The position numbers and the translations under genes are program-made. DNA of 64,000 bases, taken from Nitrosopumilus sp. Its GTDB lineage: Archaea > Thermoproteota > Nitrososphaeria > Nitrososphaerales > Nitrosopumilaceae. Positions 21,002 through 22,455 of the stretch are shown piece by piece. Below the pieces are notes generated by a model. That model did no database searches and was not told where the DNA came from. It saw only the letters and a list, made by a program, of their open reading frames with translations. The first letter of the stretch is position 1. Each line of letters starts with the position of its first letter. Where the stretch lies: the NCBI GenBank assembly GCA_965219345.1, contig OZ244732.1, positions 1,696,001 through 1,760,000 of the forward strand, in the 5' to 3' direction.

Positions 21002-21076
21002 AAAAATGAGGGCAATAATGAGCCAACTCTCGTCTGATCAAATGATGATCACGGCATGATCTGAGCCCTCATTTTT
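21002..21076 (+). ncRNA. Box C/D guide sRNA
   Basis: 12-bp terminal stem AAAAATGAGGGC/GCCCTCATTTTT; C ATAATGA (21015, 1 mismatch), 12-nt guide, D' CTGA (21034), C' ATGATGA (21042), 12-nt guide, D CTGA (21061). Confidence 0.78.
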
Positions 21077-21118
21077 TGATTCTCATTATTCTATTTTAAT
21101 TTTCAAGAGGTCTTACGC

Positions 21119-22266
21119 ATGAACGCAAGACAGCAAAGAGGAAAACAAATAGTTAAAAGACAAGATCAGATTATCAGAATAGATGAGAATCATTACAGGG
21201 TCAATTCACAAAGTAGAGGAAATATCCAGCATGATGTTGTCTCTACCGAGTTTGGATGGTCTTGTTCCTGCGAGGATCGTCTATTTAGAAAGACCTGCTG
21301 CAAGCACATTCATGCAGTAGAGATTTCATTATCAATTAGAAAAGAAGTAGAGAAAATAATCACGGTAGGACAAATTCAAACCGATTGCTGCATACACTGC
21401 AAATCATCTAAAATTAGAAAAAGAGGAATCAGAAAGAACAAGACACATTCGATTCAGTTGTATCAGTGTGGTGATTGTAAAAAATACTTTTCATTTAATC
21501 TTGGCTTTGAAAAGATGCACGCCTCGCCTCAAATAATTGCCAGTGCAATGCAGCTATACTTTACAGGTGAATCCTTAAGATGGGTCCAGAAGTTCCTGAA
21601 ACTTTAGGGTGTCAACATAAGCCATGTTTCTATCTACAAATGGATTAAGAAATACATCAAACTCATGGATGATTATCTAAACACCATAACCCCCCCCCCC
21701 AAGTAGGTGAAAAATGGCACGCAGACGAAGTATGGCTAAAGGTAAAGGGTGCAGAAAATACCTTTTTGCCATGATGGACAACGACACCAGATTTTGGATT
21801 GCCCAAGAGGTCGCAGATTCAAAGTTCAAGCATGATGCTAGAAGCCTGCTAAAGATGGGAAAAACGGTAGCCAAGAAGGTTCCTTCTGTCTTTGTAACTG
21901 ACGGTTTACCAGCTTATAATGATGCCTTCGAGAAGGAATTTGCACCAAAGAACTTTCCTGCACAAGTCAAGCAGGCACGTAAAAGAAGTTCATTTTAGAA
22001 ATCAAGTAGCAAATAACAATATCCAGGAGAGATTGAATGGCGAGTTCAGGGACAGGGAAAAAGTCTTTAGGGGCCTGAAAAAGGATGATAGTCCAGCAAT
22101 TACAGGAATCAAACTGTATCATAACTACACAAGGCCACACATGAGCCTAGACGGTAACACTCCTGCCGATAGAGCTGGAATTGAGATTAAAGGCGATAAC
22201 AAATGGAAGACAATAATCCAAAATGCAAGCCTAACGAAACCAAAGCGTTTAATTTCTACCTTGTAG
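21119..22266 (+). pseudogene. IS6-like DDE transposase with N-terminal SWIM and Zn-ribbon domains (nonsense and frameshift lesions)
   Basis: CSCED...CKH, WHADEVW, YLFAMMD, VTDGL, NNIQERLNGE; TAG at 21605, C11 run at 21690, further shifts; paralog of 34668-35789. Confidence 0.9.
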
Positions 22267-22374
22267 AAATAACAATGAAAGCCTTTTGACGTTTCCGTCT
22301 TCGTCCATGATTGCCGAATCATGATATAGACGACCCCTGATCAGACGTTACAGTCAGGGGCATTTTTTCTTCAT

Positions 22375-22455
22375 GCCATGATAGTCTAGTGGTAAGACGC
22401 CAGTCTCCTAAACTGGTCATGTAACGTGACGGGGGTTTGATTCCCTCTCATGGCG
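22375..22455 (+). tRNA. tRNA-like gene, anticodon CCT (Arg codon AGG) on a serine-type scaffold
   Basis: GCCATGA/TCATGGC acceptor, GTCT/AGAC D stem, CCAGT-CTCCTAA-ACTGG, 5-bp variable arm TCATG/CGTGA, GGGGG-TTTGATT-CCCTC, G73. Confidence 0.85.

Follow-up and report, generated by a model that had tools for sequence, protein, structure and literature searches.

A box C/D guide RNA gene and a serine-type tRNA gene carried by a decaying IS6-type transposon in Nitrosopumilus

In the genome of a Nitrosopumilus sp. (GenBank assembly GCA_965219345.1), a gene for a box C/D small RNA (sRNA) lies directly upstream of an IS6-like transposase gene, and a tRNA gene lies directly downstream of it. The question raised by this locus is whether the two RNA genes act on one another or are independent passengers of a transposon. 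The locus belongs to a stretch of 64,000 nucleotides (contig OZ244732.1, positions 1,696,001 to 1,760,000 of the forward strand), which is referred to here as the window and is numbered from its first letter. A first-pass annotation made from the letters of the window proposed that both guides of the sRNA are directed at the linked tRNA, and that the sRNA serves as the antidote to a toxic, mis-decoding tRNA. The reading favored here, with moderate confidence, is that the window contains a decaying IS6 transposon with two separate pieces of cargo, namely a serine-type tRNA and a methylation guide that probably targets 16S rRNA.

Judged by its sequence, the 75-nt gene upstream of the transposase is a true member of a box C/D sRNA family of the Nitrosopumilaceae. 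Its parts are as follows.

21002..21076, plus strand: box C/D sRNA gene, recognized from sequence layout, fold and covariance model R1
21002-21013 with 21065-21076, plus strand: terminal stem of the sRNA, 12 bp, 100% complementary
21015-21021, plus strand: C box ATAATGA, one mismatch relative to RUGAUGA
21022-21033, plus strand: D' guide, 12 nt
21034-21037, plus strand: D' box CTGA
21042-21048, plus strand: C' box ATGATGA
21049-21060, plus strand: D guide, 12 nt
21061-21064, plus strand: D box CTGA, followed by a T run

The linker between the D' and C' boxes is 4 nt long, and the boxes, the two 12-nt guides, the linker and the stem are all in register. The predicted fold has an energy of -28 kcal/mol (z -2.83), which none of 200 shuffled sequences equaled, and R1 scores the sRNA at 80.6 bits. 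The first-pass annotation was right about the gene and about the single mismatch in its C box. A search of the whole window with Rfam at gathering thresholds returned three tRNAs and no C/D family.

Model R1 was built from an alignment (A1) of seven sequences and has matches in 117 of 151 genus genomes; the guide table is based on 66 matches across 34 sources. A covariance model was needed since BLAST with the window sRNA recovered few homologues (4 of 201 genomes). The boxes and a GAGGGC/GCCCTC stem are the constants of the family, and its guides vary yet recur between genomes. Among 31 loci fetched from other genomes, three (L071, L073 and L081) have the layout in which the sRNA is followed by a transposase. 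Some of the larger genomes possess many family copies, partly in tandem arrays. Such arrays, with a period of about 130-260 nt and differing guides, are found at L008 (G080:C2:116236-119303), L072 (G274), L070 (G369) and L085 (G444), and the array at L008 packs 11 sRNA units into about 1.6 kb. When 54 distinct family guides were compared with the rRNA of this genome, 8 had a shuffle p<=0.05, where about 2.7 would be expected. The guide GTTCCATTCATT forms 11 pairs with 23S rRNA at 2062, and ATCTGGCGTTGT, which belongs to a group of guides that contain CTGGCG, forms 10 pairs with 16S rRNA at 905 (p about 0.1). The search for proteins of the guide ribonucleoprotein (RNP) covered fibrillarin and Nop5, and the host has both, at 294.7 and 231.7 bits respectively, encoded by adjacent genes.

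The association of the sRNA gene with the transposase is not peculiar to the window copy. A tblastn search of the genome with the transposase gave 36 rows of high-scoring segment pairs, seven of them full length. Sister copies on the genome's own contig, labeled C1, are designated c212, c467, c747, c1009, c1035, c1220, c1233, c1730 and c1848, and the window copy is c1717. The sister at C1:211481-212698, whose transposase is intact (377 aa), aligns with the window copy at 74% identity from the very first base of the sRNA through the transposase. A survey of the 220 nt upstream of nine transposase copies revealed a slot for a small RNA gene about 40 nt before the transposase ATG. This slot holds a C/D sRNA in three of the nine (c212, c1035 and c1717), a degenerate half sRNA in c747, and a tRNA instead of an sRNA in c1220 and c1730; no small RNA gene was found in the slot of c1009, c1848 or c467, all of which are full-length copies. 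Viewed from the other direction, a strict C/D pattern has 6 raw matches in the genome, 4 of which have a terminal stem, and three of these four precede IS6-like transposases. In two of the sisters the slot guides are near copies of conserved family guides, with the D' guide of c212 resembling the 23S guide and the D guide of c747 resembling the 16S-905 guide, which points to the capture of working guides.

The sisters are bounded by IS6-type inverted repeats (IRs) beginning with GGTTCTG and by target duplications of 7-8 bp. A pair of IRs with its duplication was identified for c1009 (GTTCTGAT), c1730 (TCATATCA) and c1035 (TAATGAT). The units so defined are 2.8-3.4 kb in size and carry methyltransferase or restriction genes, a small RNA gene and the transposase. 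IR pairs and target duplications around the sisters indicate that whole units moved as one piece, and the description of the sRNA as transposon-borne in the first-pass annotation was thus borne out. It was also considered that the adjacency arose from repeated insertion of transposons beside host sRNA genes, a possibility contradicted so far by the target duplications of c1035. The unit with the duplication of c1730 lies within the window itself at 33074-36317, where 25-nt inverted repeats and the 8-bp duplication TCATATCA enclose a broken methyltransferase gene, a serine-type (G73) tRNA gene with anticodon CAG in the slot (34533-34618), and an intact transposase gene of 373 aa. A nearly identical module of tRNA and transposase is present in the element at C1:1218898-1223066. 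Relatives of the transposase were collected at 44 loci, and for 21 of these the 180 nt upstream were read by eye, with R1 run on 3; among the 21 stretches a tRNA-like gene was seen at one (L017) and C/D boxes at none.

Two blocks frame the sRNA gene of the window copy.

20937..20984, strand not assigned: copy-specific repeats (TAAGAGTAC, twice, partly palindromic) flanking an AT-rich box, from a repeat listing
21077..21118, plus strand: T-run terminator of the sRNA, then a conserved AT-rich box (TTCTATTTTAATTTTC), a block common to the sister copies

The repeats at 20937..20984 may constitute the operator and promoter of the sRNA gene, and every sister copy has a repeated motif of its own at this position. 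The downstream box TTCTATTTTAATTTTC, which lies about 15-30 nt ahead of the transposase ATG, is a putative promoter for a leaderless transposase mRNA. The combination of T run and AT-rich box also follows the small RNA gene in c747, c1035, c1220, c1730 and L017. In sisters and relatives, an AT-rich box beside a small divergent open reading frame (ORF) is flanked by two short repeats, direct or inverted, which are peculiar to each transposon copy; the repeat pair and ORF of each element resemble a private regulator-operator pair.

The window copy is itself in decay, as the first-pass annotation had noted for its transposase. The two features that define its body and right border are given here.

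21119..22266, plus strand: IS6-family transposase pseudogene (SWIM zinc finger, zinc ribbon, DDE_Tnp_IS240), from tblastn, ORFs and Pfam analysis of a sister
22487..22510, minus strand: right terminal inverted repeat (GATTCTGTTAGCTTATCGTAGC on the minus strand), with <=4 substitutions relative to the IS6-type IR consensus of the sisters

The transposase gene is broken into three ORF pieces (21119-21607, 21714-21998 and 21919-22266), and an in-frame TAG stands at 21605-21607 where the intact sister has CAG. In a tblastn comparison the intact 377-aa sister matches the window in two pieces that are in different frames, with 73% identity across residues 1-191. The Pfam domain PF13610 (DDE_Tnp_IS240) is recognized in the intact sister at 2.3e-14, and its SWIM finger falls below the cut-off. 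The right IR contains an internal CCGTGTTAACT block in common with the left IR of c212. A left IR was searched for in the window copy and not found, and for this reason the target duplication of this copy is unreadable. Since the right IR ends at 22510, the tRNA gene at 22375-22455 is inside the element, in agreement with the earlier placement of the tRNA next to the transposase.

The tRNA is one of a group of unusual tRNAs in this genome.

22375..22455, plus strand: class II tRNA (long variable arm) with anticodon CCU, G73 and G30-C40, from ARAGORN and Rfam
C1 334078, 903934, 951659, 969888, 1038939, 1220106 and 1235417, and window 22375 and 34533: nine class II G73 tRNAs with Arg, Ile or Leu anticodons

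ARAGORN calls the gene at 22374-22456 with anticodon CCT, and Rfam RF00005 matches 22375-22455 at 62.3 bits. A long variable arm, G73 and G30-C40 form the serine identity set, which according to PMC9976931 is recognized independently of the anticodon. The presence of all three marks in tRNA(CCU) therefore suggests that its identity is of the serine type, and that it would be charged with serine. G73 is present in all 9 unusual class II tRNAs and in 4 canonical tRNA-Ser, and the 3 canonical tRNA-Leu listed have A73. The host also possesses a canonical class I tRNA-Arg(CCU) on the minus strand of C1 at about 638720-638810. This gene has an insertion in its D loop, probably an intron, and was detected neither by ARAGORN nor by the Rfam tRNA model. 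Both tRNA lists likewise lack several further tRNAs that would be expected, namely Trp, Glu-UUC, Leu-UAA, Pro-CGG and Arg-CCG. Given the serine identity marks, the Arg anticodon and the host's own tRNA-Arg(CCU), it was fair of the first-pass annotation to call the linked tRNA a putative miscoding-type tRNA.

The anticodons of the nine class II G73 tRNAs are CCU (two), UCU, GAU (two), UAU (two) and CAG (two), and 7 of the 9 genes lie <=3 kb from a transposase homologue, compared with 3 of 43 other tRNAs. The homologous second CCU gene, at C1:1235417-1235498, has diverged from the first, with many compensating changes in its stems and no change of anticodon. As read by eye, every stem is kept in both genes and the anticodon loops are identical. 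Since the stems are maintained by compensating changes, both CCU genes look as though they have been selected as tRNAs. Homologues with UAU anticodons or 8-nt anticodon loops occur in relatives (L061, L062 and L066).

Several RNAs were compared with the guides as possible targets. The D guide forms 11 contiguous pairs (10 Watson-Crick and one G-U) with 16S rRNA positions 1001-1012, which places the N+5 base at U1005, presumably about U1073 in E. coli numbering. The p value of this match was 0.023 with 300 shuffles and 0.04 with 100 shuffles. The D' guide forms at most 7 pairs with rRNA (p 0.94-0.98); a candidate target for it in the sarcin-ricin loop region of 23S rRNA was rejected, as it involves just 7 bases and is at chance level. 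Comparison of the guides with 5S rRNA, RNase P RNA and signal recognition particle RNA gave nothing better. Targets within the transposons themselves were considered as well. Two matches of 11 pairs, one between the D guide of c212 and the coding region of the window transposase and the other between the D' guide of c212 and sequence downstream of its own transposase, were dropped as being about what chance would give in 18 guide-by-element tests on both strands, by a rough estimate.

Both pairings with the linked tRNA that the first-pass annotation described, together with their N+5 positions, were reproduced exactly. Of the 12 positions of the D guide, 10 form pairs with TTCATGCCATGA (22370-22381). 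The first and ninth are unpaired, so that the helix is interrupted as 7+3, and the N+5 base is T22374, position -1 of the tRNA. The target of the D guide is a near-palindrome and therefore both strands score 10. The D' guide forms 9 contiguous pairs, including 2 G-U, with ACGGGGGTT (22429-22437), with G51 as the N+5 base. The summed score of the two guides on the linked tRNA is 19.0, which ranks first among 52 tRNAs (the next scores 17.5). In 3000 shuffles of both guides, 0.33% reached 19.0 on the linked tRNA and 8.9% reached it on any of the 52. With a stricter score that requires a contiguous run through N+5 (300 shuffles), p for the linked tRNA was 0.010 for the D' guide and 0.09 for the D guide. 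These statistics are post hoc, the hypothesis having been framed after the match was seen. The match of the D' guide is to generic T-arm sequence, and tRNA-Ser(GGA) and tRNA-Gln(CUG) score equally well or better. The complementarity between the guides and the tRNA is taken here as a real but modest excess over chance, and for the D guide the host rRNA offers the better partner (11 contiguous pairs in 16S rRNA versus 7+3 in the tRNA), an outcome that the first-pass annotation had itself named as one that would refute its proposal.

A functional pair of sRNA and tRNA might be expected to recur in related elements, and the first-pass annotation had suggested co-occurrence and covariation across homologous elements as a check. 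Six intact sRNA-transposase modules were compared, three from this genome and three from relatives. When tRNAs inside the element and up to about 350 nt downstream are counted, one of the six, the window copy, has a tRNA. In the reverse direction, a search with the tRNA yielded 5 other genomes among 400, and at none of the 7 loci fetched from these was a C/D sRNA recognized at E<=0.01. The elements that carry a tRNA in the slot, c1730 and c1220, have no guide RNA. The one sister with a CCU tRNA, c1233 (C1:1233178-1235559), shares with the window copy the order of transposase end, hairpins, tRNA(CCU) and IR; its sRNA is reduced to a C-box stump, and covariation between guide and tRNA is unreadable there because the body of the sRNA has been lost. 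It had also been suggested that the perfect target may be a sister tRNA, and no better-fitting tRNA was found in this genome or in 100 genus genomes. The pattern for such a tRNA matched the window tRNA itself and one non-tRNA sequence in 101 genus genomes, and a reversed control gave 3 matches.

In the account that fits these observations, the place of the sRNA gene is a fixed slot of the transposon, preceded by a presumably regulated promoter region and followed by a putative promoter for the transposase. Copies differ in whether this slot holds a C/D sRNA or a serine-type tRNA, and there is sometimes a further tRNA beside the right IR. An intact sRNA of this kind would be transcribed on its own, would end at the T run, and would be bound by L7Ae, Nop5 and fibrillarin to guide 2'-O-methylation of a host RNA. 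The best candidate for that target would be U1005 of 16S rRNA, reached through the D guide, and the D' guide is without a convincing target. The window copy is a relic which has lost its left end and has a broken methylase and transposase. Its C box has an A where all 6 of the other seed sequences have G, and it thereby lacks the guanine with which the kink-turn (k-turn) would form its first sheared G-A pair, a loss that should weaken the binding of L7Ae. The tRNA(CCU) would be a separate cargo of the transposon and not a conserved partner of the sRNA.

Several observations weigh against this interpretation. The 16S match depends on one marginal p value and has a G-U pair beside the target base, and a search of 400 other family genomes with the D-guide pattern returned no homologous guide, so the match is not conserved. 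Among the 54 family guides, 46 are without a significant match to the rRNA of this genome. No tRNA among the 52 suits the two guides better than the linked one, at the shuffle frequency given above, and by a plain Watson-Crick count of 10 of 12 a match in this small RNA is more surprising than one in 4.5 kb of rRNA. Finally, the interpretation offers no reason why the transposon should keep a slot for small RNAs.

The idea that IS6-type transposons of this lineage carry RNA genes which act on host translation, both methylation guides and tRNAs of serine identity that read Arg, Ile or Leu codons, with the guide here checking a co-resident mis-decoding tRNA as an RNA-only addiction pair based on the C/D machinery of the host, is highly unlikely to be correct. 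In that scheme tRNA(CCU) is a toxic mis-decoder whose maturation is blocked by sRNA-guided methylation at position -1 and G51, and the transposon benefits from the resulting dependence. In its favor, the two described pairings are real, the top rank among the 52 goes to the linked tRNA, that tRNA combines serine marks with an Arg anticodon in a host that has its own tRNA-Arg(CCU), and the two genes share one transposon. This has to be set against post hoc statistics and the 8.9% of shuffles that reach the score on some tRNA, a D pairing that is interrupted where 16S rRNA gives an unbroken one, a D' pairing that needs two G-U pairs and is equaled or bettered on other tRNAs, the presence of a tRNA in one of six modules and of an sRNA at none of the seven tRNA loci, the tRNAs of the same class that c1730 and c1220 carry without a guide RNA, the failure to find a perfect sister target in this genome or in 100 genus genomes, and a C box without the k-turn G. 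The antidote role assigned to the sRNA by the first-pass annotation is thus not supported, given that the partnership is not conserved, that 16S rRNA pairs better with the D guide and that the k-turn G is lost; correspondingly, we give very little weight to the toxin-antidote version of the locus. Archaeal C/D sRNAs also guide methylation of tRNAs, and their two guides often address neighboring sites of one RNA. The guides could direct an ordinary modification of the co-resident tRNA or assist its folding as a chaperone, without any toxin-antidote logic, and the same complementarity statistics speak for this. Here again the failure of co-occurrence, the absence of a sister target and the defective C box count against it, and position -1 would be an odd site for modification because it is removed by RNase P, all of which makes such a role quite improbable. 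Taken in all its forms, an interaction between the guides and the tRNA is unlikely.

A different possibility is a role in cis, in which the guides are irrelevant and the small RNA gene works for the transposon either as a promoter-terminator insulator that keeps transcription from upstream away from the transposase or as an L7Ae-binding tuner of transposase expression. That C/D sRNA and tRNA are interchangeable in the slot while T run and AT-rich box are conserved regardless, that guides differ freely between copies, and that many guides have no rRNA match speak for such a role, but the slot guides of c212 (D') and c747 (D) are near copies of conserved family guides and the full-length copies c1009, c1848 and c467 do without a small RNA gene in the slot; a role in cis retains a small but appreciable chance of being right. 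It is hardly credible, on the other hand, that the C/D-like structure is a chance look-alike or a plain terminator and not an RNA gene at all. The want of an Rfam family at gathering thresholds and the imperfect C box could be read in that way, but the box pairs, 12-nt guides, 4-nt linker and 12-bp stem are all in register, and homologues in other genomes keep the boxes and stem and vary the guides, in line with the R1 score. A transposon carrying a probable 16S rRNA guide and an independent serine-type tRNA thus remains the reading that we prefer.

What is left of the remainder of the element, and what surrounds it, can be described from the following features.

20553..20738, minus strand: N-terminal remnant of a passenger DNA methyltransferase, with a poly-C tract (~20689-20707, plus strand), from an ORF and motif likeness
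20740..20922, minus strand: small divergent ORF of 60 aa, from the ORF list
22296..22368, plus strand: two hairpins in the gap between transposase and tRNA (22296-22332 and 22335-22360), then a T run (22363-22368), from the sequence

The left side of the element retains just the N-terminus of the methylase and the small divergent ORF. The motif DLIYLDPLFNSK of the methyltransferase remnant resembles the N-terminus of a 445-aa methylase-HNH ORF in C1:1233178-1235559, and Pfam gave no match for the 61-aa piece of the remnant. The 60-aa ORF is possibly a DNA-binding regulator; it had no match in Pfam either, and in most relatives, as read by eye, the transposase is likewise preceded by a small divergent ORF. 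The poly-C tract at 20689-20707, located at the 5' end of the methylase remnant, and another at 21688-21700 vary in length by 1-2 bases among public runs, which could be phase variation or homopolymer sequencing error, and a G tract like the first of them is found upstream of the methylase start in c1233. The public-run comparison used contigs from four runs of one study, which confirm the assembly of the locus. Further to the left, window positions 20290-20545 are GC-rich (47% versus 36% for the genome), and public runs give short, high-depth, variant contigs for this part; it looks like a repeat or foreign fragment.

In the gap downstream of the transposase, the inner stem of the first hairpin is formed by 22307-22313/22318-22324, and the T run at 22363-22368 appears terminator-like. 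Hairpins are found at the matching place in the sister (C1:1235300-1235390), with compensating changes as read by eye. A comparison by eye of the first hairpin (22296-22332) with C1:1235300-1235345 indicates that inner and outer stems are both kept by compensating changes in these two diverged elements. Outside the right IR, window 22551-23035 contains two overlapping ORFs of 77 aa and, after it, 84 aa, the latter with a match to ParE_toxin (PF05016, 6.3e-10), and the two are likely to encode a type II toxin-antitoxin pair.

The arrangement can be compared with several known systems. It shares four boxes, two 12-nt guides, a terminal stem and a short linker with archaeal box C/D sRNAs such as the Pyrobaculum families (PMC6009581). 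Like them it has Nop5 and fibrillarin in the host, and some guides of its family are complementary to rRNA; unlike them, the window gene occupies a fixed slot in a DNA transposon and moves with it, has a C box without the k-turn G, and yielded no conserved target for either guide. Resemblance to the IS6 family (IS26/IS240 type) lies in the DDE_Tnp_IS240 domain, the GGTTCTG inverted repeats and the 8-bp target duplications of the sisters, and the differences are the units of 2.8-4.2 kb with passenger genes and a transposase with an N-terminal SWIM finger and zinc ribbon. The parallel with CreTA lies in the idea of a guide-like RNA which, by way of a host RNP, restrains an RNA toxin. The locus described here differs in having no CRISPR component and no conserved pairing of sRNA and tRNA genes, and membership in that class is not supported.

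Bacterial allo-tRNAs, as portrayed in PMC5389517 and PMC7609411, have serine identity with non-serine anticodons, among which UAU is common, and some are near transposon-related or toxin-antitoxin genes. On the strength of sequence, these allo-tRNAs appear to be the nearest known parallel of the class II G73 tRNAs, which likewise combine serine identity with non-serine anticodons, UAU included. The tRNAs of Nitrosopumilus differ in their archaeal host, in a 7/5 acceptor/T arrangement in place of 8/4 or 9/3, and in their location inside IS6-type transposons. A link in evolution between C/D-type RNAs, Nop domains and transposons has been drawn in papers on IS110 bridge RNAs and TIGR-Tas (10.1101/2024.06.21.599552; PMC12045711). 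The present locus resembles these systems in having a two-guide RNA directly upstream of a transposase, and differs in that the transposase is a DDE enzyme of the IS6 type without a Nop domain. Choice of insertion targets by the guides in the manner of a bridge RNA was rejected, since inspection found no relation of the guides to the repeats or target duplications of c1035 and the transposase lacks a Nop domain. The arrangement was not described in the literature searched, for which the texts were available in part and which did not extend to supplementary IS lists (e.g. PMC6563490) that may list the elements.

In its anatomy the locus is more interesting than first described, and it reveals a family of transposons in which small RNA genes have a slot of their own. 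C/D guide RNAs are usually seen as fixed host genes, and here they are cargo of DNA transposons that moved as units, in which the slot of the C/D sRNA can instead be occupied by a serine-type tRNA whose anticodon is not one for serine. The locus thereby adds a physical link between C/D RNAs and transposons, for which a connection in evolution by way of IS110 and TIGR-Tas is now under discussion, and the tRNAs would provide an archaeal counterpart to bacterial allo-tRNAs. Provided that the cargo is active, guides for rRNA methylation and potentially mis-decoding tRNAs would be disseminated by transposition within and between archaeal genomes, which would give mobile elements a route by which to alter translation.

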